DNA of 31,627 bases from an uncultured Lentisphaeraceae bacterium (GCA_964619145.1 CAZUCG010000001.1:1-31627); one strand, 5' to 3'; shown: positions 8,723 to 27,502, numbered from the stretch's first letter. The notes: generated by a model from the sequence alone, not told the origin. A program made the numbers and translations.

Positions 8723-9661
8723 ATGAGTATGAGAAAGCACAGCGTTGTTGCTCCGGATTGGTGGGATTATACCACTATTGCTGATGACTTGGTGGCCGAA
8801 ACCGCCCGGCTGACCGTGAAAGACATGGAGAACTTGAGCCGTCCTGGCTTCAAGGTCGTGATGTACGATACCATCGAAGAATTCTACTTGGCCGAAGCTC
8901 TGGAATATATCGAGGCTTGGCGGCACTCCACCCCCGATAACCCTTGCGGCATCTGCGGACCCATCGGCCCCACTGAGCAGCTGCCACTCGTTGCACGACT
9001 GGTCAATGCATTGGACCTGAATCTCGCGAAACTCGAAGCCCAATTCTGGGGTATGGACGAATGGGTGCAGAATGGCGTGGCAGTAGGCACTGATCACCCG
9101 CTGTCGTTTTCCAAATGCGTTAAAGGACTTTGCTTCGACCATATCCGCCCAGAACTACGGATGCCAGATAAAAATATGCATTTCCCCTCCGGTGACCTCT
9201 CGGCTTATAGCCGCACTTATGACCAATTCAGCTGTAAATTGATGCAGGGCGGGCAAGGCGACACCAAGCACTGGGCTTTCAACGACCCGCTGAAACGCGA
9301 GGGAAAATACGCGGATAACCCGCCGACTCCGGCTGAATTTCGGCAGCTGGGGACTCGTATTGTGGATTTGCACCCGATGACAGTGATGCAGAATGCCCGC
9401 ACTTCTGGTGGTGGCAATATTGCTTTGGTGCCGACCACTGCCGCCACAGTCGGACCAATCGAGACTTGGAAGTCTGAGAAGGTCTCGATCTGGCAAGCCG
9501 GTAACCACGATAACGCATTTGGAATGCGTTTGACCACACTGATGATCAGTAAGCGTATCCCGGATGCCGCTGTGCCGATGTCGTTGTTGGCGGACCACCC
9601 CAATGTCCAATTCAACTTCTATCGTCCCGGCATCGGCAAATGCGAAGTGGAAATGCACTAG
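8723..9661 (+). CDS. Divergent glucosamine-6-phosphate deaminase (NagB)-like protein, 312 aa (alternative start 8729)
   Basis: GPIGPTEQ phosphate-loop equivalent, [21 protein letters not shown] (cf. NagB GxGxxGHIAFNEP), terminal LLADHPNV. No signal peptide. Confidence 0.8.
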
Positions 9662-9681
9662 AGATAGGGAGATACACCTAA

Positions 9682-10464
9682 ATGAGTAAACCAGCAGTAT
9701 TAGCCTTAGTGGCGCATCCCGATGACATTGAATTTATGTCGATGGGCGCAATGCTGATGTTGCAGAAGCGCGGCTGGGCAGTCCATTATATGACTATCGC
9801 CAACGGCTGTTGCGGTACCGCGGTTGATGACATCGAGACAATCTCGCGTAAACGCGAGGCCGAGTGCCAGGACGCTTGTCAGCTGGTTGGCGCCACTTGG
9901 CACCCTTCGGTCTGTAACGACTTGGAAATCTTCCATAATTGGGACGTGATCAGCAAGGTCCTCAGCGTGATTCGTAAAGTCCGCCCCCGGATCATCTTCA
10001 CCCAATCGCTGGATGACTATATGGAAGACCACATCAACTCCTGCCGGGTGGCGGTGACCGCAGCTTTTGCCCGCGGGATGCTGAATGCGAAATGCGACCC
10101 GCCGCGGCCGCCGATTCAGGATGACGTGACCATCTATCATAGCACACCGCACGGATTGATGGACGCCCTCCGTCGCAAAATTGAGCCGGAGGTCTTCGTC
10201 AACGTCGAGCCGGTTATTGATCTGAAGTGGGATATGCTGGCCTGTCACAAGTCACAGAAGGAGTGGCTCGATGTCAGCCAGGGTATGAATGCATACCTGA
10301 AGGTGATGAAGGACTTCGCTGCCGAACTCGGAGAACGCTCCGGGAAATTCAAGTACGCGGAAGGCTTCCGCCGCCATTCTTGGCTGGGCTTCTCCGGTAC
10401 TGAGATCGACCCGCTGGGCGAGGTCCTCGGCGATGATGTCTGCGCGAATCAACGCTACGTCTGA
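9682..10464 (+). CDS. PIG-L/LmbE-family N-acetyl-sugar deacetylase, 260 aa
   Basis: AHPDDIE zinc motif, RKREAECQDACQLVG, IRKVRPRIIFT, EDH second motif, LACHKSQ, AEGF. GGGAG RBS. Confidence 0.9.
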   Translation: MSKPAVLALVAHPDDIEFMSMGAMLMLQKRGWAVHYMTIANGCCGTAVDDIETISRKREAECQDACQLVGATWHPSVCNDLEIFHNWDVISKVLSVIRKVRPRIIFTQSLDDYMEDHINSCRVAVTAAFARGMLNAKCDPPRPPIQDDVTIYHSTPHGLMDALRRKIEPEVFVNVEPVIDLKWDMLACHKSQKEWLDVSQGMNAYLKVMKDFAAELGERSGKFKYAEGFRRHSWLGFSGTEIDPLGEVLGDDVCANQRYV

Positions 10465-13283: not shown

Positions 13284-14201
13284 ATGTGGGAAGTTTTCGC
13301 GAACATCTTTCAGATCGTGATATTGGCCTTGTTCTTCTATATGGTCATGCGACTGTTGCGGGGCACGCCGGGATTATTGATGCTTGGCGTAGTCGTGGTG
13401 GTTATCCCAACCCTGAGTTTGGCGGCGAACTTCTTCCAGTTGGAAGTCCTGCAATGGCTCCTGCAGAATATTAGCGAGAGCCTGCCGATAATGCTGATTA
13501 TCATCTTCCATTCCGAGATCCGCCGGCTGCTGGCCTTCGTTGGCAGACATCGCTTGCGGGTCTTTCAACGCTTGCTGTCGGAGAAGAAGAAACAGCGCGC
13601 TATTGATATGATCGAGGAGATCGTGGATGCCGTCTGTGCCTTCACCACCCGACCGAATTGGCGCTCCCCAAAGACACCGAATAAACTCAAGAATGTCTTC
13701 CAGAATACTGGCGCGTTGATTGCCATAGAATTGGCACCACGCTTAAATGAGTATATTGAGAAGGGGGTGGAAATCAACGCCAAGGTCAACAGCTTGCTGT
13801 TGCAGACGATTTTTTACAATGGTACGCCTTTTCACGACGGCGGGATCATCATCCGCAATGAGCAGGTCGCGGCTGCGGCCTGTCAATTCCCACTTTCCAG
13901 CAGCGCCAGAAATCAGTCGGTCCACACGCGTCATAGTGCCGCGATTGGCCTCTCTGAGCAGGTCGCTGATGCAGTCGTTATCGTTGTTTCAGAGGAAACC
14001 GGCACAGTTAGCGCTACCTTCAAGCAAGGCGAATTGCAAGTTATGGATACGCCACGGCAACTCGATAAGCTCCTGCGCCAGAAATTACACGTCCTCCCCG
14101 GTGACGAAGGCCAAATCGGACTCTGGGAAAAGTTAGCCGACAAGTTTTTACAGTTGGTTGCCAAGTTCAAGACTCGCAAACAAACTACGAGCAAAGAATA
14201 G
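13284..14201 (+). CDS. cdaA: Membrane-anchored diadenylate cyclase CdaA/DacA (DisA_N domain), variant motifs, 305 aa
   Basis: Three N-terminal hydrophobic segments, IIIFHSEIRR, TGALIAIE, TPFHDGGIII, TRHSAAIGLSE, IVVSEETGTVS. Classic position between folP and a ybbR gene. Confidence 0.88.
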   Translation: MWEVFANIFQIVILALFFYMVMRLLRGTPGLLMLGVVVVVIPTLSLAANFFQLEVLQWLLQNISESLPIMLIIIFHSEIRRLLAFVGRHRLRVFQRLLSEKKKQRAIDMIEEIVDAVCAFTTRPNWRSPKTPNKLKNVFQNTGALIAIELAPRLNEYIEKGVEINAKVNSLLLQTIFYNGTPFHDGGIIIRNEQVAAAACQFPLSSSARNQSVHTRHSAAIGLSEQVADAVVIVVSEETGTVSATFKQGELQVMDTPRQLDKLLRQKLHVLPGDEGQIGLWEKLADKFLQLVAKFKTRKQTTSKE

Positions 14202-14259
14202 TACCGGCAAGTGGACCATTTCCTTTTTCTTAACCTCAGCAAACAAGCAGTAATTCGCA

Positions 14260-15363
14260 ATGAGTTGGTCGAATTTCAGTCACAAGCTCCGCTATTATTT
14301 CCAGCCCATCTGGCTAAGCATCTGCACCGATATCTGGCGCAAATCCTTCGCCTTGCTGCTGGGATTTATTTGTTGGTATTACATCTATATTGGTTTCCGC
14401 GAGAAGGATAACGAATGGCGGACTTTCGCGAAGGTCCCGGTGAGCTTACAAAAACACCCCGAATTCTACTTGCCTCGACAGGAGAACTTGACTGTCGAGC
14501 TGAAGATCGCGGTCGAGAGCTCAGCTCGGAAGGGGAGCATTGCCCCAGATGATTTTTTGATCGAGATTAATCCCGCCCGACTGAAGTTGCCATCACTCGA
14601 AGATAGCAATTTTTTGCGGCGGCCCTACAAAGTTACTTTGAACGTAGACGAGCATATTAAACAGAAGCCGCCGGGAGTGAAAGTCTTGCGCTTCGACCCG
14701 CCCGAAGTGGAAATCTATTTTGATCGTCGTTTGCAAGTGCAAAAGAAAGTCTATGTGACTATCCAAGGGCGTTTGCGAGAAGGCTTCGATTATCGCTACG
14801 AATTAAGTCAAGATACAGTTACCGTGGAAGGGCCGGCTTCAGAGTTGGCCAATTTGCTGGTGATATACAGCGCCCCACTGCTGTTGAATGAAACTATGCA
14901 ACACGATTTTTCCACCAAACTGGGCGTCGCCAGCCCAGATGGCAGTAAATTCAATGTCTTCCCCGATACTGTCGAAGTCAAGGTTAATATTGAAGACAAA
15001 AAAAGCGTCATCAGCCAGAAATTCGCGGCGGTGAAATTGGCCCTGCTGTTCCCCAGCCGCAGCCATTTGCGAGTGACTAATCAGTTGCCCGATAGCGTGG
15101 AGGTGATCTTACGGGGTCAAAGGGAATTGATGAACGCTATCAAACCGGAACAATTTACCGCATTTTTGGACCTGACCCACCTTACCACACCTGGGACGTA
15201 TGACGAACTGGCAGTGCAATTCGTCGGCTTGCCCGCTGAAATCAAGCCATTCTTTATCAAGCCAGATAAATTTATCGTCACTTTAGCTGCGAGAATGCCA
15301 GCCGGTGGCAGCAGCGATGCGGCTAAGGCTTCAACAGATATCCCCGGCAATAATGGCAATTAA
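14260..15363 (+). CDS. cdaR: CdaR/YbbR-like regulator of diadenylate cyclase, 367 aa
   Basis: N-terminal TM (KSFALLLGFICWYYI) then repeated beta-rich units ending P..V.V (PPEVEI, QDTVTVEGPASEL, PDTVEV, PDSVEVILRG). Directly after cdaA. Confidence 0.8.
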   Translation: MSWSNFSHKLRYYFQPIWLSICTDIWRKSFALLLGFICWYYIYIGFREKDNEWRTFAKVPVSLQKHPEFYLPRQENLTVELKIAVESSARKGSIAPDDFLIEINPARLKLPSLEDSNFLRRPYKVTLNVDEHIKQKPPGVKVLRFDPPEVEIYFDRRLQVQKKVYVTIQGRLREGFDYRYELSQDTVTVEGPASELANLLVIYSAPLLLNETMQHDFSTKLGVASPDGSKFNVFPDTVEVKVNIEDKKSVISQKFAAVKLALLFPSRSHLRVTNQLPDSVEVILRGQRELMNAIKPEQFTAFLDLTHLTTPGTYDELAVQFVGLPAEIKPFFIKPDKFIVTLAARMPAGGSSDAAKASTDIPGNNGN

Positions 15364-16306
15364 TACCCAACCTTGTTTGATTGTTACTGGGCCGACTGCT
15401 ACCGGGAAGACACACTTGGCGGTAGCGCTGGCTAGAAAATTCCAGGGTGAGATTATCAGCGCTGATTCGCGCCAAGTCTATCGCGGGCTCGATATCGGCA
15501 CCGGCAAAGACTTGCAGGAATATGGTAGCGATAATGACCGCATCCCCGCGCATTTGCTCGATGTGGTTGAGCCAGGGGAGGAGTTCCATCTCTTCCGCTT
15601 TGTCCAGCTGGCCAGAGATGCTATCCAGGATATCGGTCAGCGTCAGCGACTGCCGATTATCGCCGGTGGCTCGCCGTTGTATCTGCGGGCGTTGCTCGAT
15701 GGTTATGAGTTGCAGGGTCCCCCGCCTGATACCGCCTATCGGCAGCAACTCTCGACACTGTCGGAGCAGGAGCTGATTGGGATGCTGCAACGCCAGGCTA
15801 CACCAGCGCTCTTTGCCCGCACTGACTTGACGCAACGGCGGCGGTTGATCCGGGCTTTGGAGATTGCCCGCTCCGGCGGCGACGGAAATTTCCCACCTGT
15901 CGGCCTGGAGAATACCTTGATTCTCGCTCCTAAGTATCCGCGGCCAGTTTGTCATCAGCGCATCGAACAGCGCTTGGATGAACGCCTGGCGCACGGCTTG
16001 CCGGAGGAAGTCGAGCGCTTGCATCAACAGGGGCTATCTTGGGAGAAATTGGAATGGCTCGGTTTGGAATATCGCTATCTGGCCCAATATTGGCAAGGGC
16101 AGCTGACTTGGGCGGAAATGCGTCAGGCACTCTTGGCCCGGATCCGGCAGTTCTGCAAGCGCCAGGATATCTGGTTCCGGAAAATGGAACGCGAGGGCAA
16201 GAAGATCCACTGGCTGCCTGAAGGAGATTTCACACTTGCCTGCCGCTTGACCGAAGAATGGCTGGCCCAACAACGCAATGCCAAAACTTCAGCCCCACTT
16301 GGTTGA
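15353..16306 (+). CDS. miaA: tRNA dimethylallyltransferase (MiaA), 317 aa; overlaps the cdaR stop by 11 nt
   Basis: GPTATGKT P-loop, SADSRQVYRGLDIGTGK, HLLDVV, GGSPLY, RRLIRALEI, RQFCKRQDIWFR. The ORF-track GTG 15305 extension looks non-coding for this gene. Confidence 0.93.
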   Translation: MAINTQPCLIVTGPTATGKTHLAVALARKFQGEIISADSRQVYRGLDIGTGKDLQEYGSDNDRIPAHLLDVVEPGEEFHLFRFVQLARDAIQDIGQRQRLPIIAGGSPLYLRALLDGYELQGPPPDTAYRQQLSTLSEQELIGMLQRQATPALFARTDLTQRRRLIRALEIARSGGDGNFPPVGLENTLILAPKYPRPVCHQRIEQRLDERLAHGLPEEVERLHQQGLSWEKLEWLGLEYRYLAQYWQGQLTWAEMRQALLARIRQFCKRQDIWFRKMEREGKKIHWLPEGDFTLACRLTEEWLAQQRNAKTSAPLG

Positions 16307-16505
16307 TTTATGCCAGCGGTTAACATAACTAGGATCGCTTGCCCGCCGGTAAGATGGAACTGGGTAGCAGCGGCTCGTAATCCGCCCCGTTTGGGACCCG
16401 CGTGCGCGTTTGAAATTCTCCTCCTGCCGCTGTTGACGGTTAATTCACAAGACTGCAGGATTGCTAAGCAAGAATGCCAATTCTGACAAATGCCGCTGGA
16501 CGAAT

Positions 16506-16523
16506 TGCATTTCGTGAAATGCA
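16506..16523. promoter_or_regulatory. 18-bp palindrome, candidate transcription-factor operator
   Basis: TGCATTTC-GT-GAAATGCA, perfect 8-bp arms, ~110 nt upstream of the six-gene cluster. Confidence 0.45.
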
Positions 16524-16634
16524 GAATAGATTTTCAAATGCCTGCTGTTTGCTGTAGCTTAAATCCACTTCTCTCCAATTATCAATAAGAACAATTATCT
16601 TTGCCAATATTCATTATTAAAGAGGAATTGCAGA

Positions 16635-18992
16635 ATGCTCAAAAAGCTCTTAACTTGTTTGTTGCTCTGCTCTGTTGCTTGTTTTGCCCAGCGTTTCGTA
16701 CCGGATTGGCCTAATGCCGCTATCATACTACCTGAGAAGCCTAGTATCGTCCAAGGTTTTGCCGCGGAAGAGCTACAGAAGCACTTAACGTTGCTTGGCG
16801 GGCTGACAGTTAAGATTCAGCGCGGCGGCGACTCGGCCTTCCCACTCTATGTCGGCACAAAACCGCCTGATTCAAATAAAGAGCTGACCCAGGAAGAGGC
16901 CGTCTGGCAGATTACCCCACAGGGCTGCTGGTTCTATGGCGATGACACACCCAGCTCAGAAATGCGAGACCGCGTGCCGTTGATGGCTATCTGCCGGTTG
17001 AATAAATTGGGCACCCTGACTGCTGTCTATGATTTCTTGGAACAGCAATTCCAGGTCCATTGGATTGAACCCGGCGCTGGCGGCATCGCCTTCCCGCCAG
17101 TCAAAGAGCTGTCTTTGCAAGCCGGTCAGGGCGGTTGGCAGCCAGCTATCCCCAAGCGGGGGATGCGCTTGGGAATTTCGCCTTACAAGAGCTATAACGA
17201 TGATCTGCCAGAGGGCTTTCAGCTTACTCAGGAGGAATGGGAGAAAAAATACACCGATGTCGCCATTTGGAGCAAGCGGATGCGGATGGGCTCGCATTTG
17301 CCGATGCAGTACGGGCACGCATTTACCACCTGGTGGAATAAATATGGAGAGGATCATCCCGAGTATTTTGCCCAGGTCAAAGGTAAACGCGCTCCCACCC
17401 GCCCGAAGATGCCTGACACCATTAAAATGTGTGTTAGCAACCCCGGCCTGCAGCAGCAGATTGTCAATAACTGGCTGGCTGGCAATCCGCGTTCGAAGTT
17501 CATCAATGTCTGTGAAAATGACTGGGGGGATTTTTGTGAGTGCGATGACTGCCGTAAACTAGACCTGCCGCCGCCGGAAGGCAAGGATTGGGATTATGAC
17601 CTTAGCGACCGCTATCTGCATTTCGCCAATCAAGTCCAGAAATTGGCGGCTGCGCACGATCCAGAGGTCACCGTCTGCACCTACGCGTATAGCGTCTATA
17701 AATTTCCGCCTCGTCGCGAGAAGGCTGACCCGCGGCTGATCATTGGCTTCGTGCCCAGTATGTTTGCTTTCACAGAAACCGATAAGATGTACAAAGCCTG
17801 GAATGCTGCCGGTGCCCGTAAGATATTCCTGCGCCCGAATTGCCAGCACAGCAATACCAGCTTACCGATGGGCTTCGAGAAGTTGATGTTCGATTTCTTT
17901 CAGTTGGGTGTCCAGAACGGCATCGTCGGGACCGACTATGACTCAATCCACAATTTCTGGGCCAATACCGGTATCACGGATTACATCCTGGCGCGAGCCC
18001 ACTGTTATCCCGAAAAGACCTTCCAGGAATTGGAGAACGAATACTATTCCGCTTTTGGCGCCGCCGCAGCAGATATGCGCGAATATTACCAGTACTGGCG
18101 CACTGAAGTCTGGGAAAAAAGACTGCTGCCCAACCGAGAAACCATCAGTGCCCGAGGCCGCTATGGCAATTTCCGCCGCGGACTGATGTGGGATTTACAT
18201 AAATATTACTCCGAAAAAGATTTTGCCTTGATGAGCAGTATCTTGGAGCGCGCCGTTACTCGCGCTGACCTTGACCCACAAGTCCGCGAGCGCTTGCAGC
18301 GCTTGCAGTTGAGTAACCAACACAACTTGTTGACCTATAAGGCGATCACTGCACCCGTAGAGGAGAGATTCAGCAATTCTCGCGAGTTGCTGGCTTTCCG
18401 ACTGGGCAATCGGGATAACCTGAATATCGACTGGCGAAGACAGCTCCATATCGAACGCGGTTTCGGCGATTTAGCCGGTATCTATGCAGTCTGGAATTTT
18501 CGCGACTATGCGGCTTTCAAGACTATCCCAGAACGCTGGTTCTTCAAAATCGACAGCGCCGAGGTGGGTCTGGCAGAGCAATGGGAAAAGCTACCCGGGG
18601 CCCAAATCCTGGCGACTTGGGAGCCTATCAAGGTCACCGCCGGCTGGGAACAGCAGGCAGGTTCCGGGATGCACCCGAAATTACTCGAGTTGTTAAAGGA
18701 ATACGACGGCTATGGCTATTATGGCCAGACAGTCAAAATCGACCCCAGCTGGAAAGGAAAAGAAATTGCGCTGCTCTTCGGCGCAGTCGATGAATCTTGC
18801 TGGGTCTGGCTGAATGGAAAATTGGCCGGAGAGAGAATTTTTCAGGGCGGTGACGAATGGAAGTTGCCTTTTAGCATTCGTATCGATCAATGTATCGATT
18901 GGGAATTGCCACAACAGACTATCGTGGTGAGAGTACACGACAGCGGTGGCCAGGGCGGAATCTGGAAACCAGTGTCAGTGGTGATGAAATAA
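16635..18992 (+). CDS. Secreted DUF4838-domain protein with N-terminal GH67/GH20-like domain and C-terminal GH2-type sugar-binding jelly-roll, 785 aa
   Basis: Sec signal MLKKLLTCLLLCSVACFA; AAEELQKHL; GTLTAVYDFLEQ; GHAF..PEYFA..CVSNP..NDWGDFCECDDC; YAYSVY; C-terminal YDGYGYY..LLFGAVDE..VWLNG..VRVHD.GG.GGIWKPV. AGAGGA RBS. Confidence 0.75.
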   Translation: MLKKLLTCLLLCSVACFAQRFVPDWPNAAIILPEKPSIVQGFAAEELQKHLTLLGGLTVKIQRGGDSAFPLYVGTKPPDSNKELTQEEAVWQITPQGCWFYGDDTPSSEMRDRVPLMAICRLNKLGTLTAVYDFLEQQFQVHWIEPGAGGIAFPPVKELSLQAGQGGWQPAIPKRGMRLGISPYKSYNDDLPEGFQLTQEEWEKKYTDVAIWSKRMRMGSHLPMQYGHAFTTWWNKYGEDHPEYFAQVKGKRAPTRPKMPDTIKMCVSNPGLQQQIVNNWLAGNPRSKFINVCENDWGDFCECDDCRKLDLPPPEGKDWDYDLSDRYLHFANQVQKLAAAHDPEVTVCTYAYSVYKFPPRREKADPRLIIGFVPSMFAFTETDKMYKAWNAAGARKIFLRPNCQHSNTSLPMGFEKLMFDFFQLGVQNGIVGTDYDSIHNFWANTGITDYILARAHCYPEKTFQELENEYYSAFGAAAADMREYYQYWRTEVWEKRLLPNRETISARGRYGNFRRGLMWDLHKYYSEKDFALMSSILERAVTRADLDPQVRERLQRLQLSNQHNLLTYKAITAPVEERFSNSRELLAFRLGNRDNLNIDWRRQLHIERGFGDLAGIYAVWNFRDYAAFKTIPERWFFKIDSAEVGLAEQWEKLPGAQILATWEPIKVTAGWEQQAGSGMHPKLLELLKEYDGYGYYGQTVKIDPSWKGKEIALLFGAVDESCWVWLNGKLAGERIFQGGDEWKLPFSIRIDQCIDWELPQQTIVVRVHDSGGQGGIWKPVSVVMK

Positions 18993-19060
18993 AACATTTT
19001 TTTGCCGGGCGGCTGCACGCTTGCTCAGGCTGATTACTAAATCTAATATCAGGAGTGGAT

Positions 19061-19858
19061 ATGAATATCGCATTATCGGCCTTAATCGCCGGAAATCTCC
19101 CAATGCCGGAATTCTTGCAGCAAGCCAAAGATAGCGGCTACGACGAAGTCGAGCTGTCCTTGCGGCCGACGCTGGAATCGCCGTTGAATTATTCCAGCAC
19201 GGATGCCCAGCTGACCGAATATAAGGCTCTGGCCACGGCTTTGGCAGTGCCCATTACCTCGCTGGCGATGGCCGGTAAGTCCGGCAATTTGCTGGAAGCC
19301 GGTCAGGGTGGCGCGGAGGGCATTGAGTCGGCTGTCTGGGGCCTGGAGTGCGCCGCTAAACTTGGCGCAAAAGTCTGCTTGCATACCCTGGGCAGGCTGT
19401 CAGCCGAACTCTATTACGAAGACGCCTATAATAATGCCATCACGGCATTGCAGAAAATCGCCCGCGCGGCTGAGAAAATCGGCGTGACTTTCGCAGTCGA
19501 GTTTGTCTGGAATGGATTCTTGTTCAGCCCCCTGGAAATGCGGAATTTCCTGGATAGCGTCGGCAGCCCACGGGTCGGATTCTATTTTGACCCCGGCAAT
19601 ATGGCCGTCTTCCAATACCCCCAGCATTGGGTCCGGGCCCTTGGACAGCGCATTAAGCGCGTCCATTTGAAAGACTGGAAAGGCAAGGCCTTGAATGGCA
19701 CTTGGACGCCGTTGCTGGCTGGCGAGGTCGATTTCCCAGTCGTGATGCAGGAGTTGCGCCGGGCTGGCTATGCCGGGCCGCTCGTCTCAGAAGTCTCGCC
19801 GGCTTTGGCATCATTCGCGGAGACGGCTAAAGTTATGCGCAAAATTGCGGAAATGTAA
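19061..19858 (+). CDS. Sugar-phosphate isomerase/epimerase family TIM barrel, 265 aa
   Basis: VEFVWNGFLFSPLE, YFDPGN, VHLKD, LVSEV metal ligands. AGGAG RBS 5 nt before ATG 19061. Confidence 0.85.
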   Translation: MNIALSALIAGNLPMPEFLQQAKDSGYDEVELSLRPTLESPLNYSSTDAQLTEYKALATALAVPITSLAMAGKSGNLLEAGQGGAEGIESAVWGLECAAKLGAKVCLHTLGRLSAELYYEDAYNNAITALQKIARAAEKIGVTFAVEFVWNGFLFSPLEMRNFLDSVGSPRVGFYFDPGNMAVFQYPQHWVRALGQRIKRVHLKDWKGKALNGTWTPLLAGEVDFPVVMQELRRAGYAGPLVSEVSPALASFAETAKVMRKIAEM

Positions 19859-19879
19859 GTTATTAGAGGAACCGACTAG

Positions 19880-20965
19880 ATGCTGAAAATTCTTTTCCCC
19901 TTCCACGGGGCTGTACTGAATCGCTGCCACGGCCAGCAAAATACCGCGGGCTTGACAATTGAGGTCACCGGCACCGCACCAATTTGCAGTGAAGTCACGG
20001 TCAATGGGCGGCTCGCCCGGCGCAAGGGCGAATTGTTCTGTGCCGATATCTTGCTAGATCGTTTCAGCAATGCCATTACCGCCAGTTGCTCTGGCGTGAC
20101 TGGCACGAGCGAGCAATCCATCAAAGTCATTTGGGATAAGAACTCCCGTCGCCGCTACCGCGTCGCCATCGATGATAATTCCTTCTTCCTTAGGGACCTC
20201 TACCAAAAGCGCCCAGCTGACTTGTTCAGTAACCACTATTTGGCCATCCTGAAACGCTTGCACGCTGAATTCGGGGCTAAATACACCCTGAATCTCTTCT
20301 TCTCTACACCGGAGAAGGATTTCGATTTATCGCTGCTGCCTGATACCTGGAAATCGCAGTTTGCTGATAACAGCGACTGGCTGAAGATGACCTGGCACGC
20401 CGATAACGAATTCCCCGACCGGCCATACCAATACGCCACCCCGGAAAAAGTCGCCGCCGACTTCGATAAAGTCCAGACCGAGGTCGTGCGCTTTGCCGGC
20501 GAGAGCTGCTTCTGCCCGGCGACCATCGTGCATTGGGGCGAAATCCTGCCCTCGGCCCTACCGGCGCTCTATCAGCGTGGCGTGCGCGCCCTCAGCGGCT
20601 ATTTTAACCGCGACGAGCAGCGTTACAATGTCAGCAACGGCCTCGATGAAGTGCGTTGTCATTATCTGAATAGCCACGACGCGCTAATGGATTTCGAGAG
20701 CGGCATCGTGTTCAGTCATATCGATATCGTAGTCAATTGCACGCCAATAGAGCAAATCGTCCCGACACTCAGTAAATACGTTGACGACCCCGATAACTCG
20801 GAAGTAATGGATATCTTGACCCACGAACAGTACTTCTGGCCATTCTATTTCAATTACATCCCGGACCACGAGCAGCGGATGGCGACGGCATTGCGCTTCC
20901 TCCACGAGAACGGCTATGAGCCAATCTGGCTGCATGAGGGGCTGCTCGGCGTCGAACCAGCGTAG
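19880..20965 (+). CDS. Hypothetical protein: N-terminal Ig-like beta domain + NodB/polysaccharide-deacetylase-like barrel, 361 aa
   Basis: The ORF has an RBS (AGAGGA) and is tightly packed in the cluster. Motifs AIDDN, TWHADNEFP and ILTHE are spaced like CE4 motifs 1, 2 and 5. The fold call is inference. Confidence 0.6.
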   Translation: MLKILFPFHGAVLNRCHGQQNTAGLTIEVTGTAPICSEVTVNGRLARRKGELFCADILLDRFSNAITASCSGVTGTSEQSIKVIWDKNSRRRYRVAIDDNSFFLRDLYQKRPADLFSNHYLAILKRLHAEFGAKYTLNLFFSTPEKDFDLSLLPDTWKSQFADNSDWLKMTWHADNEFPDRPYQYATPEKVAADFDKVQTEVVRFAGESCFCPATIVHWGEILPSALPALYQRGVRALSGYFNRDEQRYNVSNGLDEVRCHYLNSHDALMDFESGIVFSHIDIVVNCTPIEQIVPTLSKYVDDPDNSEVMDILTHEQYFWPFYFNYIPDHEQRMATALRFLHENGYEPIWLHEGLLGVEPA

Positions 20966-21000
20966 GCTGCTTATAGCTTGGGATTACTCCCTCTTGCCTT

Positions 21001-21972
21001 ATGCACATAAAAATCAGCCATCTCAGCCGATCTTTCAAGAAAGTCAAGGCGGTCAGTGACCTCACCTTCGAATTCGCGTCTGGCAATATCTTTGGCTTTA
21101 TTGGCCCTAATGGCGCTGGCAAGACCACCACCATCAAGATTATGGCCAGTATGGATATGCCAGATGCCGGCGATGTCTTCTTCGACGGTGTATCGGTCGT
21201 TAACTATCCGGAAAAAGTCCGGCAGCTGGTCGGCTATATGCCTGATACACTGCCGGGCTACAAGGATATCCACGTCTGGGAGTACCTCGATTTCTTTGCC
21301 CGCAGTTTTGGCTTACAGGGACAGCAGCGGCGACAGACATTGGCCGAAATCGAAGAATTCACCTCCTTGGGTGATCTGCGGGAGAAGCAAATCTCGACTT
21401 TGTCCAAGGGGATGAAGCAACGCGTCAGCTTGGCTCGCGCCTTGGTGCATAATCCGCAAGTGCTGATTATGGATGAGCCGGCGGCCGGGCTCGACCCCCG
21501 CAGCCGGCGCGAATTGCGGAGCCTGCTGAAAATTTTAGCTGGTCAGGGTAAGGCGATCTTGCTTAGCAGCCATATCTTGACTGAGTTGCAGGATATCTGT
21601 GACGGAGCAGTCATTATCGAGCAAGGGCGATTACTCTCGGCTGGTACTATCCCGCAATTGCTGGCTCAGAGCCGGCAGAAACAGCAACTCGAAGATGCGA
21701 ATGCCAATGCTGACGAAACTGTGCAGCTGCTCATCCAGTGCTTGCGTGATGGCGAGGCAGTGCGCCTCAAGCTGCTCGAGCACCCGGCTGTACTTGAGGT
21801 CCAACTGACGCTGAACAATACCGTCCGGGCTCAGCTCAAATGTCAGGACGAAGAAATACCTGCCATTATGGCCACGCTATTTGCCGCTGGACTGCCGATT
21901 GTCGGCTTCGCCAAGCAGGAACTCGGCTTGGAGGAACTTTTTATGCGTATCACCTCCGGGAAAGTGCAATGA
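21001..21972 (+). CDS. ABC transporter ATP-binding protein (ABC-2/exporter type), 323 aa
   Basis: GPNGAGKTT, LSKGMKQR, LIMDEPAAGLDP, SSHILTE. Confidence 0.93.
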   Translation: MHIKISHLSRSFKKVKAVSDLTFEFASGNIFGFIGPNGAGKTTTIKIMASMDMPDAGDVFFDGVSVVNYPEKVRQLVGYMPDTLPGYKDIHVWEYLDFFARSFGLQGQQRRQTLAEIEEFTSLGDLREKQISTLSKGMKQRVSLARALVHNPQVLIMDEPAAGLDPRSRRELRSLLKILAGQGKAILLSSHILTELQDICDGAVIIEQGRLLSAGTIPQLLAQSRQKQQLEDANANADETVQLLIQCLRDGEAVRLKLLEHPAVLEVQLTLNNTVRAQLKCQDEEIPAIMATLFAAGLPIVGFAKQELGLEELFMRITSGKVQ

Positions 21973-23402
21973 AGATTGCGGCCAGGGACCTCAGTGACTG
22001 GTTCAACCCAGTGTTTATCAAGGAATTGCGGCAATTCTTCCACAATTACCTGATCCTGGCTGTGATGGCATTGCTGCTCATCGGGCAGCAACTTATTTTG
22101 CTCTTTGTGCATTTAGCATATACTAGCAGCGGGAATCTCAATGACAATACCGGCCGAGTGGTCTTTACCTTTATTGTCGTTGGCCTAGTGTGTTGTATCT
22201 TCGTTGTCTGCGGGGTGGGTGCCGCGCAGCGATTCTTGCTTGAAAGACAGAACGAAGAACTCGATTTCTGCAAACTGACCGCAATCTCGCCAACTCGTAT
22301 TATTTGGGGGAAGTTATGCAGTTCGCTGGTGCTATTGGTCTTTATTACCTCGCTCTGCCTGCCCTTTATCGGCATAGCGTATTTCCTGCGAGGAATAGCT
22401 ATCCTGCAAATGCTGAAGGTAATGCTGCTGTTATTGCCTGTAACCTTGGCGATTATTTTTTCGGCCATTTTAGTTGGCGCGATAGGCAAGAAGGGCCTCG
22501 CCGGGCTGTTGAGCATCGGCGGATCAATTTATGGCATTACCGTGCTGACGCTCATTTTTAATGATACCCAGGTCTGGACTTCGAGCTCCGGAGCCGATTT
22601 GCCATTGTTGTTGTTCGCAATTATTATCCCGTTATTCTGGAGTGGCTTATGCTATGTTCTCAGCGTGGCCAGCGTCAGCCATTCCCTGGCCAACAGGATG
22701 TTGCCAGTCAGAATTTATCTGTTGACACTGTTAGCGGCCTGCCCCCTGGCAATGGCCGCGCTGGCTGCCTTGACCGACGAACACGTACTCGATTTTTTGC
22801 AGATTAGTTTCAGCCTTACTGCCAGTATCGTGGTGGGCATTGTCGCAGCCCTGGCCGCCTGCGAACGCTCGCGGCCTAGTCTGCATATCCAGAACCAATG
22901 CCCGCGTAACATCTTTTTGCGCAGTGGCTTCTTTTTACTCTCCAGCGGCTCAGGCGGTGGCATCACGCTGGCGGCCTTAATCTTGCTGCTGCTGGTTGCT
23001 CTGCCGGTGCGACTGGCCTCCGGCAGTTCAGACTTATATTTGATCTATACCTTCACTGATATCGCCATCTATCTGCTGTTCTATGCCGCCCTGGCGATCT
23101 TTTTGCAGGAGTGGATGCCCAGATTATCTGGCCTTGCTTGGTTTTGCCTGAATCTCATTGTGCTATTGTTGCTGCCAGGCATTGTCAGCGGCTTTATCGG
23201 GGTGACTGAGGCCAAAACATTTAATTACCTGACGATTACCAGCCCATTTTTTCTGTTTGCGGTCGATTACCCCGAGCATTTTGGGCAATTCAAGCACAGC
23301 ACTAGCTTGCCGTTCGCGACCGCGGGGTTGTTTCTGGCTAGCCGGAGTATTAGCCTGCAATGGCGGGCATTACGACTGAATACTGCCGACGCGGCTAAAT
23401 AA
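21969..23402 (+). CDS. ABC-2-type permease / polytopic membrane protein, 477 aa
   Basis: ATGA overlap with the ATPase stop; NPVFIKELRQ; ER..EELD..LT.ISP..IIWGKL; about a dozen hydrophobic segments. Confidence 0.8.
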   Translation: MKIAARDLSDWFNPVFIKELRQFFHNYLILAVMALLLIGQQLILLFVHLAYTSSGNLNDNTGRVVFTFIVVGLVCCIFVVCGVGAAQRFLLERQNEELDFCKLTAISPTRIIWGKLCSSLVLLVFITSLCLPFIGIAYFLRGIAILQMLKVMLLLLPVTLAIIFSAILVGAIGKKGLAGLLSIGGSIYGITVLTLIFNDTQVWTSSSGADLPLLLFAIIIPLFWSGLCYVLSVASVSHSLANRMLPVRIYLLTLLAACPLAMAALAALTDEHVLDFLQISFSLTASIVVGIVAALAACERSRPSLHIQNQCPRNIFLRSGFFLLSSGSGGGITLAALILLLLVALPVRLASGSSDLYLIYTFTDIAIYLLFYAALAIFLQEWMPRLSGLAWFCLNLIVLLLLPGIVSGFIGVTEAKTFNYLTITSPFFLFAVDYPEHFGQFKHSTSLPFATAGLFLASRSISLQWRALRLNTADAAK

Positions 23403-23437
23403 TAGCCGTCATAGTGACTGAAAGAAAGAGGAATACC

Positions 23438-25333
23438 ATGAATCTGACGTACCAGCCTGACCGAGTTAAACCGGAAATCGCCGCCCTGCTGCAGGAACTG
23501 GCGGTCGAGTACCCTATCGCACCTAATGCCGCTGGATTGATGCTGGATTTTGTCCCGGCTGCTGAGCCCTCGACGCTGCGGGTTACCCGTACTACCACCG
23601 GTCTGAAAATCGAATACGGTAAGACAGCCGCGGCCGCTCGCGGCATCGGCTATGCTTTGTCGGGGACAGAAACGACGGAAGACCTCTGCTTCGAGACTTA
23701 TGCCATACTCTACGATTGCTCCCGCAATCCCGTGTTGACGGTTAAGCACGCTCAACATTGGCTGCGCCGAATGGCGCTGCTAGGCTATGATATGATGATG
23801 CTCTATACCAAAGACGCCTATCAATTGCCCGGTGAGACCTACTTCGGATATATGCGCGGCGCTTACAGCATCGAGGAAATCCAGGCTATGGACAAGGTGG
23901 CGCAGCGCCTGGGCGTGCAGATGTCCGCCTCAATCCAAGCTCTCGGGCATCTGGAGCCGATTCTGCGCTGGCCGGCCTACGCTGGCGTCAAGGACACCGA
24001 TAACGTGATTATGGTCGATAACGAAGACAGCTACCAGCTGATCCGCAAGATGCTGACCTTCTGGAGTGAGGCGCTCTCCTCTCGTCGTATCCACATCGGG
24101 ATGGATGAGACGCACGACTTGGGCCGCGGCCGCTTCCAGGACCTGCACGGCAAGCAAGATGCCTTCGAGCTCTATAATCGTCATTTGCAACGCGTCTGCG
24201 CTATCTGCAACGAACTACAGCTGCAGCCGATGATCTGGAGCGATATGTACTTCCGCTTGGGGAACAAGAATCTTAGCTACTATGATTTGCAGAGCAAAAT
24301 CCCGCAGTCGGTCAAAGACGCCATCGCCCCTGAAGCGCAGTTGGTCTATTGGGACTATTATCACCGCGACGAAGAATTCTATCGCAAGATGCTGCAACTG
24401 CACCGTGACCTGGGGAAAAAGCCAGTCGTGATGGCTTCTGGTATCTGGACTTGGGTGAAGCTCTGGTACGACCACGAAATCACCACCGCGACAGTGCGGC
24501 CTTGCCTGCAGGCCTGCCGCAAAGAGGGCGTGAAAGAAGTAATCTATACTCTCTGGGGTGATGACGGCGGCTATTGCGAGTTCGATTCGGCTTTCGCAGG
24601 AATGGCCTGGGCCGCGGATGAGGCCTTTAATGGACATAGCGACGACGAGAGATTGGAGAAGTTTTTCGCAGGCGTCTTTGGCACCAGCTACCGCCGGCAG
24701 CTCCTGGCTTCCGATTTGACCATCACCGTCCGGGATACCGATATGAGCCCCGAAATGGCGAAACGGCACGGCTCGCCACCCTGGCGATTGCACGCGCCTT
24801 GCGCACTCTGGGATGACCCCCTGATGGGCATCGTCTGGCACGAATATAAGGCCTATAATTCCAAAGTCTGGGAGAATTATGCCGCCGACTTACACCTGCT
24901 ACGCGAGCAACTCAGCCCCTACCGGATTACTGACCGTAGTGCCGGCTATATTGACCACGCTTGGCATTGTGCTAATGCCTTGCTGCAAAAAGTGGAATTG
25001 CGCCTGCAGTTGCTCAAAGCCTATAAAAAGCGTGACCGTAATGCCCTGAAAGCCATTCGCGGGGCCAAGATCGATGCCGTAATCTCGGCCTTGGACGGCC
25101 TGAATGATTCATTTCGCCGCCAGTGGCTGCGAAGCTATAAATATTATGGCCTGGAAGTTATGCAAATAAAATTGGCTGGCCTGAAAGAGCGCTATCGTGA
25201 GACCAGCCGCCGGATCGGCGAGTTGTTATCTGGCGAAATCGCCTCGATCCCCGAGCTCGAGCTGAATCCCGAGACACTCGGCTCAACCGACACCCGCTAC
25301 CGGATGGCGGTTACCGGCGGCTGGTTTATTTGA
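23438..25333 (+). CDS. GH20 beta-N-acetylhexosaminidase, GcnA-like, cytoplasmic, 631 aa
   Basis: YDCSRNPV, MALLGY, YFGYMRGAYS.EE, IQALGHL, catalytic HIGMDET, MIWSDMYF, YWDYYH, WGDDG all follow streptococcal GcnA. No signal peptide. AGAGGA RBS before ATG 23438. Confidence 0.9.
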   Translation: MNLTYQPDRVKPEIAALLQELAVEYPIAPNAAGLMLDFVPAAEPSTLRVTRTTTGLKIEYGKTAAAARGIGYALSGTETTEDLCFETYAILYDCSRNPVLTVKHAQHWLRRMALLGYDMMMLYTKDAYQLPGETYFGYMRGAYSIEEIQAMDKVAQRLGVQMSASIQALGHLEPILRWPAYAGVKDTDNVIMVDNEDSYQLIRKMLTFWSEALSSRRIHIGMDETHDLGRGRFQDLHGKQDAFELYNRHLQRVCAICNELQLQPMIWSDMYFRLGNKNLSYYDLQSKIPQSVKDAIAPEAQLVYWDYYHRDEEFYRKMLQLHRDLGKKPVVMASGIWTWVKLWYDHEITTATVRPCLQACRKEGVKEVIYTLWGDDGGYCEFDSAFAGMAWAADEAFNGHSDDERLEKFFAGVFGTSYRRQLLASDLTITVRDTDMSPEMAKRHGSPPWRLHAPCALWDDPLMGIVWHEYKAYNSKVWENYAADLHLLREQLSPYRITDRSAGYIDHAWHCANALLQKVELRLQLLKAYKKRDRNALKAIRGAKIDAVISALDGLNDSFRRQWLRSYKYYGLEVMQIKLAGLKERYRETSRRIGELLSGEIASIPELELNPETLGSTDTRYRMAVTGGWFI

Positions 25334-25347
25334 GCCCGCCCAAGGCT

Positions 25348-25389
25348 AAGAGCTGCCGTTGGCCGCTATCCTGATCAACGCCAGCTCTT
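25348..25389. terminator. Strong hairpin between convergent genes (possible bidirectional terminator or stabiliser)
   Basis: AAGAGCTGCCGTTG (25348-25361) pairs with CAACGCCAGCTCTT (25376-25389) at 13/14 positions; no U-tract on either side. Confidence 0.5.
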
Positions 25390-25401
25390 GCTAAGAACAG
25401 A

Positions 25402-26388
25402 TTAATTTTCGGTTTGAGCCGGCATCTTCCAGGCCGGCTTGCGCCGGAACGGCTTCTCAAAAGTATTATTGATGCGCCCAGTTTGTTCTAAATGCATCAT
25501 ACAAGCACGGATGCAGCCAGCCGCGCCTTCTAACGCCCGCGAATAAAAATATTGCGGAGGCAGTTTGTAGTTCTGGGAGCGAGCGACCGGCTCGGTAAAT
25601 TTTTCCTTGTCCTCGGGTGTGACGCTAAAGGGATTGTGTTTTGACGATGCGCCGCAGAAGTATCGGCTACAGAGCGAGTAGTCGATGTCGGCCCATTCAA
25701 TCGGCACGCCATCGATGACTACTCGAACACACTTGTTGTCATCTGTGGGGATGGCATTGCCAGTGCAAGCCTTGGCACAGAGCTTGCAACGGTCGCAAAT
25801 CGTGCCCGGTTTGACAATGGGGTCGTAGTCGAATTCAGCATCTGTCAACAGCAGCGCGATGCGCTGCCGGGGGCCGAATTCTTTGGTCAGGAAGATTTTG
25901 CTCCAGCCTATCTCGCCCAAGCCGGAAATTACTGCGCCGAGGCGCATATGGACGGATAGGTTAGGGTGGGGCAGCCCCTCTCGCAGCGGTCGGCTGCTGG
26001 CCGGATGGGGTATTTGCTCCTGGCCGTGCGGGAGTTGTCCAGAGGTATTTGTCGCTCCCCAGGCGAAGTGATTGGGGATGGGCATTGTATCGTAGCCTTG
26101 GTCCTCAATCCAGCCGCAGATTTCTCGCAACACCATTGGTTGGCGGATGCAGTTGATGCTGGCATACGCCACCCCCGAGTAGTTGGTGAAAAATGTCCCC
26201 TCTTCAATGCCACGAAAGGACCCACGCAGGTGACGGAAAGCCAAGCCGATAATCGACTTGCAACCAGGAAGGATGTAACGGACATCGAATTGCTTGGGCG
26301 CGCCCTCATAACGACTGACTGGACCGATCGACACGGCGTCTGCACCTGCTTCTAAGGCGCATTGTTTCAGCAATTTTGCGCTTAGCAT
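25402..26388 (-). CDS. Cobalamin/4Fe-4S protein of the QueG/reductive-dehalogenase superfamily, paralog B, 328 aa
   Basis: GADAVSIG, SGLGEIG....LTKEFGPRQR...LTD, CDRCKLCAKAC, DYSLC, GCIRAC. GGAG RBS 7 nt before ATG 26388. Confidence 0.8.
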   Translation of the reverse strand: MLSAKLLKQCALEAGADAVSIGPVSRYEGAPKQFDVRYILPGCKSIIGLAFRHLRGSFRGIEEGTFFTNYSGVAYASINCIRQPMVLREICGWIEDQGYDTMPIPNHFAWGATNTSGQLPHGQEQIPHPASSRPLREGLPHPNLSVHMRLGAVISGLGEIGWSKIFLTKEFGPRQRIALLLTDAEFDYDPIVKPGTICDRCKLCAKACTGNAIPTDDNKCVRVVIDGVPIEWADIDYSLCSRYFCGASSKHNPFSVTPEDKEKFTEPVARSQNYKLPPQYFYSRALEGAAGCIRACMMHLEQTGRINNTFEKPFRRKPAWKMPAQTEN

Positions 26389-27365
26389 TGGCAATCTCCA
26401 AAGCGAGTTTTGAATTTGTTCTTCAGCACGCCGCGTTCTTCGAGGTGCTCCATACAGGCGATATGGCAGCCGCGCCAGGCGCCGACCTGCCGGCCGCTCC
26501 AGACGACCGGCCCCAACTTGTAATTGCGGGCCTCGGTGTAAGGCTGTTGATTGAAACCGACTTTGTCCGCCTCACTAACAATAAATGGATTGCACGACTT
26601 CTCGCCGCCGCCATGCAGCGCCACGCTGCATTTGGCAAAGTCCAGCTTGTGCCAACTTATTTCCCGGCCGGCAATCTTGACGCTGACCTTCTCACTGCGA
26701 GAAATGGCGCAGCCCGGGCATTGTTCTATACACTTGCCGCAGTGGTCGCAGAGACCACCAGAGAAAATTGGGTCTGGGTCGAGTTCGGCATCAGTCAGGA
26801 CTACCGCGAACATCTGTCGCGGGCCGTATTCCGGGGTCAAGAAAGTGCCGCTGTCACCAATCTCACCTAAACCAGCGCAGTAGGCCGCCAGGCGCATCTG
26901 GAAGTAGATGTCTGGCGCAGGGCGGTCATCACTGACCGGGCGGCTGTAGTCGCTGCTGTCTTTGCCGAAGAAAGCTGGGTTCACGTCGATGAAATCCTGG
27001 CCCATCTCGTCTGGATTGATGCCGTCCAGGTTACTCCAAGGGAAGGCGTCGGGGATGGGCACGGCCTCATAACCGATATCTTCGAAGATATTGCAGAATC
27101 GCCACAGCGTCACGGGTTGGAAGACCCATTTATTGCAGGCGTAGCCCATCATACTGAGTGGCGCATAGAAGGTCCCGGCTTGCACCCCGCGGTATAAACC
27201 GCGGAACATCCGGAAGCCTAACACGATTACCGATTTCGCTTCTGGGAAGATCGACATCGGGTTGTAGCGGGCAGGTAGCTCGGCAAAGCGATCTGGCGAT
27301 GCAATGCCCACTAAATCCGCGCCAGAATTAATGGCCTGTGCTTTGACTTGGGTACTGGTCAGCAT
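26382..27365 (-). CDS. Cobalamin/4Fe-4S protein of the QueG/reductive-dehalogenase superfamily, paralog A, 327 aa (alternative start 27371)
   Basis: GADLVGIA, AGLGEIG....LTPEYGPRQ....LTD, CDHCGKCIEQCP, DFAKC, GCHIAC. AAGGA RBS; its stop overlaps the paralog B start by 7 nt. Confidence 0.8.
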   Translation of the reverse strand: MLTSTQVKAQAINSGADLVGIASPDRFAELPARYNPMSIFPEAKSVIVLGFRMFRGLYRGVQAGTFYAPLSMMGYACNKWVFQPVTLWRFCNIFEDIGYEAVPIPDAFPWSNLDGINPDEMGQDFIDVNPAFFGKDSSDYSRPVSDDRPAPDIYFQMRLAAYCAGLGEIGDSGTFLTPEYGPRQMFAVVLTDAELDPDPIFSGGLCDHCGKCIEQCPGCAISRSEKVSVKIAGREISWHKLDFAKCSVALHGGGEKSCNPFIVSEADKVGFNQQPYTEARNYKLGPVVWSGRQVGAWRGCHIACMEHLEERGVLKNKFKTRFGDCQC

Positions 27366-27502
27366 AATCATTCCTTTGTCTGCAATAGTATATTACTCAA
27401 GCATTGATACCTGAAAAAGCTAACAATAAGAAAATAATTTAACTGCCATCGCCGAAATTACAACCGCGGAGAGGCGTGATTGGAAAAATAAGATCGCCCG
27501 AT

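Follow-up and report, generated by a model that had tools for sequence, protein, structure and literature searches.

Do six closely packed, co-directional genes in a Lentisphaerota genome encode one route for the breakdown of glycans that contain N-acetylhexosamine (HexNAc)? The question is raised by a 31,627-nucleotide (nt) stretch of DNA from an uncultured Lentisphaeraceae bacterium (GCA_964619145.1, CAZUCG010000001.1:1-31627; hereafter the window), in which all six open reading frames (ORFs) of a cluster at 16635–25333, here called g1 to g6, lie on the + strand. A first-pass annotation, made from the sequence alone, read them as a SusC/D-independent HexNAc-glycan system in which a secreted, endo-acting DUF4838 enzyme (g1), a TIM-barrel isomerase (g2), a NodB-like deacetylase (g3) and a cytoplasmic, exo-acting GH20 enzyme (g6) form one route that feeds a PIG-L/NagB-like gene pair at 8723–10464. 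This model omits g4 and g5, an ABC-2-type pair that is found in MoxR/BatA strings of other genera. We found that only two genomes, both of the same genus, share the six-gene order and that each gene group has its own recurring neighborhood elsewhere, which speaks against a single route. With a probability of roughly 0.6, we read the six genes as a genus-specific mixed gene string and not as an evolved single pathway.

The six-gene order is kept only within the genus

In two same-genus genomes (loci L020 and L025), we found the six genes in the same order at 77–90% identity (59–63% for g5). In L020, all 15 of the window genes spanned are syntenic, including unrelated FolP, CdaA, YbbR, MiaA, Fe-S and VWA genes; because the unrelated flanks are kept too, conservation within the genus reflects general synteny and says nothing specific about the six genes. 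The junction between g3 and g4 measures 35 nt in the window and, judged by where the matches end, about 51 nt in L020; in L025 it spans about 500 nt of non-coding DNA (4784–5284) that is GC-rich and hairpin-forming.

Outside the genus, none of 13 loci with a g3 ortholog (47–68% identity) carries an ortholog of g1, g2, g4 or g5, and a g6 ortholog is near g3 in one of them, 7.5 kb away and on the other strand. Among 80 species-level loci with g3 homologs (L055–L134), orthologs of g2, g5 and g6 are present only in the two same-genus loci, a DUF4838 gene is present in four and a beta-CASP RNase gene in 17. In six Pfam-scanned loci, g3 is followed by a gene for a beta-CASP metallo-beta-lactamase RNase and by another whose product has about 760 amino acids (aa); a homolog of this product is encoded on another contig (C508) of the window's own genome. 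In two further loci, L023 and L027, which lay outside the Pfam scans, the beta-CASP and MoxR contexts rest on ORF sizes. In 22 loci outside the Oligosphaeraceae group, g3 has sulfatase, beta-helix, GHL10, heparinase-like, GH43, GyrA, helicase and peptidase genes and one DUF4838 gene as neighbors, and we found no recurring HexNAc-specific partner among the 44 of 88 neighboring ORFs that were scanned. Orthologs of g2 (55–74% identity) follow an aldose 1-epimerase gene in 4 of 10 loci; on contig C238 of the window's own genome, a 664-aa gene and an aldose epimerase gene stand together with no g2 behind them. No cluster partner was found near g1 orthologs (five loci) or g6 orthologs (nine loci) outside the genus.

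The same picture is seen across whole genomes. In one relative (G012), the orthologs of g1, g2, g3, g5 and g6 are present on five separate contigs (19.6–115 kb), and in G011, a genome assembled as a single contig, about 310 kb separates g2 from g3 and searches with the cluster queries found no g1, g5 or g6 ortholog. To score presence across 41 genomes we chose thresholds of E ≤ 1e-115 for g3 and E ≤ 1e-100 for g6, and found a g3 ortholog in 20 genomes, a g6 ortholog in 19 and the two together in 12, compared to about 9 expected; the two presence profiles are near independent, in a set of relatives that are not independent samples. In 7 of the 12 genomes that have both genes, g3 and g6 are on different contigs. 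Shuffled neighbors in relatives had been named in the first-pass annotation as an outcome that would count against the one route, and this is what we observe outside the genus, where only the adjacency of g4 and g5 is kept.

g4 and g5 are kept together in other genera

The adjacency of g4 and g5 is present in five of five loci of other genera, with orthologs that are 55–59% and 30–33% identical to the window proteins, respectively, and a MoxR gene adjoins the pair in three of the four Pfam-scanned loci. In L026 (2563–14393), the string consists of a 452-aa protein, MoxR, a 569-aa protein, the ABC ATPase, the permease, DUF58, BatA and VWA, and a similar context is also found in L028 and L030. 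In other genera, g4–g5 orthologs are embedded in such MoxR-DUF58-BatA-VWA ('Bat'-like) strings of Planctomycetes–Verrucomicrobia–Chlamydiae (PVC) bacteria. In contrast, the window pair is detached from its Bat-like string: MoxR and the 569-aa neighbor are present without the ABC pair on contig C129, which ends 349 nt later. A sequence of 52–58 nt, 98–100% identical between copies, recurs at contig ends or close to them on at least 12 contigs, including C129 (first 58 bases), C596, C314, C3, C715 and C623; on C129 it sits just downstream of the MoxR and 569-aa genes, where relatives have the ABC pair. This sequence may be a repeat or a mobile-element end that breaks the assembly.

In Pfam, g4 matches PF00005 and the DrrA1-3_C domain, and its best NCBIfam models are TIGR03522 (GldA, 233.7 bits) and TIGR01188 (DrrA, 218.4 bits), both below their cut-offs. 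The g5 frame overlaps g4 by 4 nt and encodes a protein with about 10–12 hydrophobic segments by hydropathy and no Pfam match even at E ≤ 10; atlas clusters of its relatives carry the name 'ABC transporter permease family protein', some with ABC2_membrane_2/3 on 11–22% of members, which serves as a lead only. The window thus has an ABC-2 subfamily ATPase next to a multi-pass membrane protein in a string with no solute-binding family, as is expected of an ABC-2-type system. The g4–g5 pair is probably unconnected with glycan uptake and is of an exporter type whose usual partners are MoxR, DUF58, BatA and VWA. We favor the view that g4 and g5 are the only conserved functional pair among the six genes.

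Orientation and spacing do not single out the six genes

The gaps between the six co-oriented genes given in the first-pass annotation (68, 21, 35, –4 and 35 nt) were all reproduced (Table 1). Alternative frame openings are present for g2 (GTG 19055), g5 (ATG 21840) and g6 (GTG 23414), and the starts of g3 and g6 are supported because matches in relatives start at residue 1.

Table 1. Genes of the cluster and flanking features, in window coordinates.
Feature	Position	Strand	Length	Description
g1	16635–18992	+	785 aa	DUF4838 glycosidase, signal-like N-terminus, C-terminal GH2_N-like sugar-binding sandwich
g2	19061–19858	+	265 aa	Xylose-isomerase-like TIM barrel, sugar or sugar-phosphate epimerase/isomerase type
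g3	19880–20965	+	361 aa	N-terminal Ig-like sandwich (1–88), NodB-like (beta/alpha)7 barrel (90–360)
g4	21001–21972	+	323 aa	ABC ATPase, ABC-2 (GldA/DrrA-like) type
g5	21969–23402	+	477 aa	Membrane protein, ABC-2-type permease partner of g4
g6	23438–25333	+	631 aa	GH20C/GcnA-type beta-N-acetylhexosaminidase family, without signal peptide
Palindrome TGCATTTC-GT-GAAATGCA	16506–16523			Within the 328-nt miaA–g1 spacer
Hairpin	25348–25389			Between convergent g6 and an Fe-S gene (25402–26394, – strand)

The six genes are part of a run of 16 genes (84–25333), all on the + strand, that extends from SecA (84–3080) to g6, and unrelated housekeeping neighbors are similarly tight, with gaps of 81, 58 and –59 nt. 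Therefore, orientation and spacing do not set the six genes apart from the rest of the run. Because the gaps are short, co-transcription of g2–g6 is likely; it would follow from packing and would be no evidence of a common substrate.

When we scanned the six proteins with Pfam, g3 and g5 had no family match and, as previously noted for this cluster, no TonB receptor, solute-binding protein, phosphotransferase system component or kinase was matched. The string also lacks the adjacent SusC and SusD genes of a SusC/D-type polysaccharide utilization locus. Across the whole genome, which is 82% complete, there were no matches to SusD (PF07980) and no TonB-dependent receptor (PF00593) over the cut-off. 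The description of the cluster as SusC/D-independent thus applies to the organism as a whole and is not special to this string.

Upstream of the six genes, miaA comes directly after the genes for a c-di-AMP cyclase (DAC) and a YbbR-domain protein (13284–16306). Downstream, two tandem paralogues on the – strand (25402–27371) converge on g6; they are about 39% identical to each other's orthologs and weakly resemble reductive dehalogenase and QueG-type Fe-S proteins. Landfill and wastewater metagenomes contain this DNA; among the RNA runs listed, none was found that covers 16300–25500.

Signals at the flanks of the cluster

An operator-like palindrome upstream and a hairpin downstream had been noted for the cluster, and both are present. 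Of 2000 mononucleotide shuffles of the 328-nt spacer, 83 (4%) contain at least one perfect 8-nt inverted repeat whose arms are no more than 10 nt apart; the genome contains one exact copy of the palindrome, and allowing up to two substitutions yields one further site, on contig C124. We did not find the palindrome upstream of g1 in either same-genus relative (L020 and L025), and in both of them the miaA–g1 spacer is about 45 nt, as compared to 328 nt in the window, so that not even genomes of the same genus share the cluster's upstream boundary. The palindrome was rejected as a regulon motif on the basis of its single exact genome copy and its absence from L020 and L025, and the evidence for it as an operator is weak. 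In Rfam, there was no match for the upstream region (16200–16700) at E ≤ 1 and none across the whole window at gathering score.

The downstream hairpin has arms of 14 nt each (25348–25361 and 25376–25389) that are 93% complementary, and its free energy is –23 kcal/mol (z = –2.44), with 2 of 200 shuffles folding equally well. It has no T-run and is not among the terminator-like sites from our scan. Scans of 16000–26000 for promoters and terminators returned 12 sites each, compared to 7.5 and 10.3 expected in shuffles, and gave no useful mark at the cluster ends.

g6 resembles GH20C and GcnA

We found that g6 residues 77–609 align with PDB 5a69 (GH20C, E 4.6e-71) and 2epk (E 5.1e-69), and that the HIGMDETH motif of g6 aligns with NIGMDEAH of 5a69, so that the catalytic D-E pair is kept. 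The Asp-Glu pair, which comes after the H-x-G motif, is a signature characteristic of GH20 (PMC10570127). Matches to both structures together with the D-E pair confirm the GcnA-type GH20 assignment made in the first-pass annotation. The protein carries the GH20C C-terminal domain PF18088 (92.8 bits, cut-off 27) and scores below the generic GH20 model PF00728 (18.3 bits, cut-off 22.3); its family membership rests on the PDB alignment because the GcnA/GH20C subgroup diverges from the generic model.

The alignment with GH20C (SP_2141, Streptococcus pneumoniae) and GcnA (S. gordonii) extends over the catalytic and C-terminal helical domains, and g6 resembles these enzymes in its D-E pair, its length class and the absence of a signal peptide; in the hydropathy profile of g6 there is no N-terminal hydrophobic segment. 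Family membership and the catalytic pair point to a cytoplasmic exo-beta-N-acetylhexosaminidase as the predicted activity. In S. pneumoniae, GH20C acts as an exo-beta-hexosaminidase, and its gene belongs to an N-glycan processing locus in which its neighbors are a ROK kinase, GH38, GH125, GH92 and GH29 (PMC5215778); none of these neighbors is present at the window locus.

g1 is one of many DUF4838 proteins in the genome

In g1, residues 202–485 match DUF4838 (PF16126) at 106.1 bits (cut-off 26.6) and residues 633–734 match PF02837, a GH2_N-like sugar-binding domain. Residues 5–23 are hydrophobic by hydropathy and are followed by CFA-Q, an N-terminus that is signal-like by inspection. The predicted structure (predicted local distance difference test score, pLDDT, 90.0) combines a TIM barrel and a helical bundle with an alpha/beta domain at the N-terminus and a sandwich at the C-terminus. 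Among PDB folds, GH115 alpha-glucuronidases match best (E 2e-15), followed by GH84, so that HexNAc enzymes do not come first; further matches are GH2 beta-glucuronidases, which cover the C-terminal sandwich only, and 6q63, a chain that bears the title BT0459. Full-length relatives with an identity of 42% or higher number at least 120; few of them are named, and most of those few are titled DUF4838 domain-containing protein. Within the g1 subfamily (30 sequences), C293, C301, C303 and C306 are invariant (window 17511–17552, residues 293–306) and form C-E-N-D...C-x-C-x-x-C inside the DUF4838 barrel; this motif could be a metal site beside candidate acidic catalytic residues.

Our account of characterized DUF4838 enzymes follows one source (PMC10570127). 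The founder of GH163, BT1035 of Bacteroides thetaiotaomicron, is a DUF4838 protein, as the first-pass annotation correctly stated, and acts as an endo-beta-N-acetylglucosaminidase on complex N-glycans, where it cleaves the linkage of N-acetylglucosamine (GlcNAc) to mannose (GlcNAc-beta1,2-Man) in an endo fashion. The same Pfam domain includes GH185 (Sp_0475), an exo-acting 6-sulfo-GlcNAcase, and PF16126 is spread over many clusters and no fewer than two CAZy families; 'vast diversity', much of it uncharacterized, was seen when 3826 sequences were placed in a similarity network (PMC10570127). Because the domain holds an exo-acting GH185 enzyme and this diversity, endo action and HexNAc specificity cannot be read from DUF4838. 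Like BT1035, g1 has a DUF4838 catalytic domain followed by a C-terminal beta-sandwich domain of sugar-binding type and a predicted extracytoplasmic location (PMC10570127); compared by description, the C-terminal domain is GH2_N-like in g1 and F5/8 type C in BT1035. With GH185, g1 has the DUF4838 domain in common; in contrast, the GH185 cluster (cluster 3) is cytoplasmic and essentially without signal peptides (PMC10570127), while the N-terminus of g1, judged by inspection, is signal-like. In the literature retrieved with PVC taxon names, we found no mention of DUF4838.

To place g1 in its genomic background, we searched the 3.43-Mb, 82%-complete genome with PF16126 and found 36 matches on 32 contigs (for example C28, C55, C40 and C313), which correspond to about 33 genes; many relatives likewise show at least 20 matches to g1. 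We estimate that a DUF4838 gene is expected within 5 kb of any given gene in about 1 in 10 cases. With 36 matches genome-wide, one nearby DUF4838 copy is weak evidence.

g3 has a NodB-like fold and g2 an isomerase-type barrel

By sequence, g3 has no significant match in Pfam, NCBIfam, phmmer or a PDB sequence search, and no match to Polysacc_deac_1 (PF01522) even at E ≤ 10. A profile of 36 g3 homologs reached only E 1.8 to a CE4 chain in PDB, hhalign of g3 against one CE4 sequence gave a probability of 4%, and atlas links of g3 to DUF2334 and Polysacc_deac_1 clusters score 0.78–0.79, which is a lead only. In contrast to this, the model built from the 36-sequence alignment (pLDDT 91.8) has clear structural relatives. 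With VIA-align, it matches the chitin deacetylase 5z34 from Bombyx (Z 15.3, root-mean-square deviation 3.8, 239 aligned residues), HP0310 (3qbu, Z 14.7), ArnD (8t0j, Z 14.1), the GH57 4-alpha-glucanotransferase 1k1w (Z 14.1) and the exopolysaccharide deacetylases Agd3 (6nwz) and PelA (9cgy), both at Z 13.3; Foldseek gave a probability of 1.00 to several CE4 chains.

The barrel of g3 is thus common to CE4/NodB deacetylases (Z 14–15 for 5z34, 3qbu and 8t0j), and g3 has an invariant Asp-Asp and several His; unlike these deacetylases, it has no PF01522 match. The residues D98, D99, H173, H218, H315, E316, H352 and E353 are invariant. CE4 metal and catalytic motifs are Asp-Asp and His-His, and the invariant Asp/His/Glu set of g3 suggests a metal hydrolase. 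The chemistry of g3 is not fixed by its fold because GH57 glycosidases fit equally well (Z 14.1). Of the earlier description of g3 as a NodB-like deacetylase, the fold is borne out by the model match at Z 15.3; the deacetylase part would follow from the fold only, as g3 gives no sequence-level CE4 signal.

Homologs of g3 number 1196 at E ≤ 1e-5, and among the matches listed 0 of 120 have a Pfam domain. Homologs that are more than 50% identical are titled Lentisphaerota, Planctomycetota, Kiritimatiellota, Aminicenantes and Omnitrophota. Longer forms in the family are named twin-arginine signal proteins by several sources; the window copy has no signal peptide. Judged from these matches, g3 is a member of a widespread family without a name that is present in several phyla.

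As the first-pass annotation proposed, g2 is of the TIM-barrel isomerase type: it matches PF01261 at 126.4 bits, and its best PDB match is UlaE (3cqh, E 4.3e-9). Its closest NCBIfam models are L-ribulose-5-phosphate 3-epimerase, all below their cut-offs. The PIG-L/NagB-like pair that the proposed route would feed sits 6.2 kb from the cluster, behind five housekeeping genes. Its first gene (8723–9661, 312 aa) has marginal NagB similarity (E 0.013 to PDB), and the PIG-L/LmbE deacetylase gene, which starts 20 nt after it, has a diacetylchitobiose deacetylase as best PDB match (E 2.9e-10). A NagB above the curated cut-off (302 bits) is found on another contig, and other contigs also carry a NagA-like gene below its cut-off (145.5 vs 225.65 bits), three ROK-family genes and four more GH20 genes.

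A mixed gene string and its alternatives

Taken together, these data favor a mixed string, in which the six genes would have been joined from at least four separate ancestral neighborhoods in an Oligosphaeraceae-like Lentisphaerota genome rich in carbohydrate-active enzymes. In such a string, g1 would be a secreted DUF4838-family glycosidase, one of about 33 genome copies; g2, by its family, would be a sugar or sugar-phosphate epimerase or isomerase; g3 would be a cytoplasmic, metal-hydrolase-like enzyme of NodB fold, possibly a de-N-acetylase; g6 would trim imported HexNAc-terminated oligosaccharides in the cytoplasm; and g4–g5 would form an exporter-type ABC-2 ATPase and permease. We think it reasonably likely that g1, g2, g3 and g6 are individually carbohydrate-active enzymes. 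We rejected the alternative of an ancestral cluster that every other genus has since dispersed; it is less parsimonious because each gene's alternative context recurs across several genera.

Several observations weigh against the mixed string. Three of the six products (GH20C; DUF4838, which includes GH163 and GH185; and the NodB/CE4-like protein) belong to folds or families with characterized members that act on HexNAc substrates, which is a suggestive combination, and the junction gaps of 21–35 nt fit selection for co-expression. In G006 and G017, two genomes of another genus, the distance from the g3 ortholog to the g6 ortholog is 7.5 kb and 5.2 kb, respectively, with the two genes on opposite strands and unrelated genes between them; a DUF4838 gene is at most two genes from a g2 ortholog in 2 of 10 loci; and a g3 paralog is found on contig C40 together with two DUF4838 genes. 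In addition, orthology was judged from best hits only, and many of the relatives are fragmented assemblies.

If the six genes were instead a recent, genus-level operon for HexNAc glycans, g1 would cleave a HexNAc-containing glycan outside the cell, the fragments would enter through an importer encoded elsewhere, terminal beta-HexNAc would be removed by g6, and de-N-acetylation by g3 and isomerization or epimerization of the product by g2 would follow. The tight gaps and the GH20C identity and D-E pair of g6 are in keeping with such an operon, as is the placement of S. pneumoniae GH20C in an N-glycan processing locus (PMC5215778); however, the string contains no importer or kinase, its ABC pair is of exporter type and elsewhere part of a MoxR/BatA string, and canonical NagB and ROK kinases are on other contigs. 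Both characterized DUF4838 enzymes cut beta-GlcNAc linkages (PMC10570127), whereas g1 has GH115 enzymes as its best folds and its HexNAc specificity is at most putative. Similarly, the NodB-like fold of g3, with invariant D98, D99, H173, H218, H315 and H352, would suit a de-N-acetylation step, but g3 has no sequence-level CE4 signal. The adjacency of g1, g2, g3 and g6 is not conserved outside the genus, except for a loose g3–g6 link that includes their proximity in a second genus, and the presence profiles of g3 and g6 are near independent. We consider a recent HexNAc operon unlikely.

It is quite improbable that a new operon, made up of a secreted DUF4838 glycosidase, a sugar epimerase, a protein of the highly conserved g3 family, a GH20C hexosaminidase and an ABC-2 pair drawn from a MoxR/BatA string, arose from four unrelated loci in the genus ancestor and, in an organism in which we found no SusC/D-type genes, became a working HexNAc-glycan route where the exporter-type ABC proteins took on a new part in glycan traffic. 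Systems of the poly-N-acetylglucosamine (PNAG) or Pel type include deacetylase and hydrolase steps, and a cell-envelope or exopolysaccharide module in which the ABC-2 pair would export a HexNAc polymer, the NodB-fold protein would deacetylate it and the glycosidases would trim it could draw on the likeness of g4 to GldA/DrrA-type exporters, on the fold matches of g3 to Agd3 and PelA (Z 13.3 each) and on the apparent secretion of g1, but we regard such a module as highly improbable, as the string has no glycosyltransferase or polymerase, g3 and g6 have no signal peptides and so no access to an exported polymer, and the conserved partners of the ABC pair are MoxR, DUF58, BatA and VWA and not polysaccharide synthesis genes.

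Implications for glycan loci in Lentisphaerota

If the one-route model were true, it would provide a compact, testable route for glycan degradation in Lentisphaerota, a little-studied group, and would place one of the many uncharacterized DUF4838 enzymes in a physiological setting for the first time. Under the mixed-string reading that we prefer, the locus is mainly a warning: where a genome contains about 33 DUF4838 genes and no SusC/D-type genes were found, a tight, co-directional string with two glycosidases is expected by chance and ordinary packing, and conservation inside one genus is no proof of common function. More useful leads are the g3 NodB-fold family, whose identity stays above 50% across several phyla, the large expansion of DUF4838 and the ABC-2 pair in MoxR-DUF58-BatA-VWA strings.

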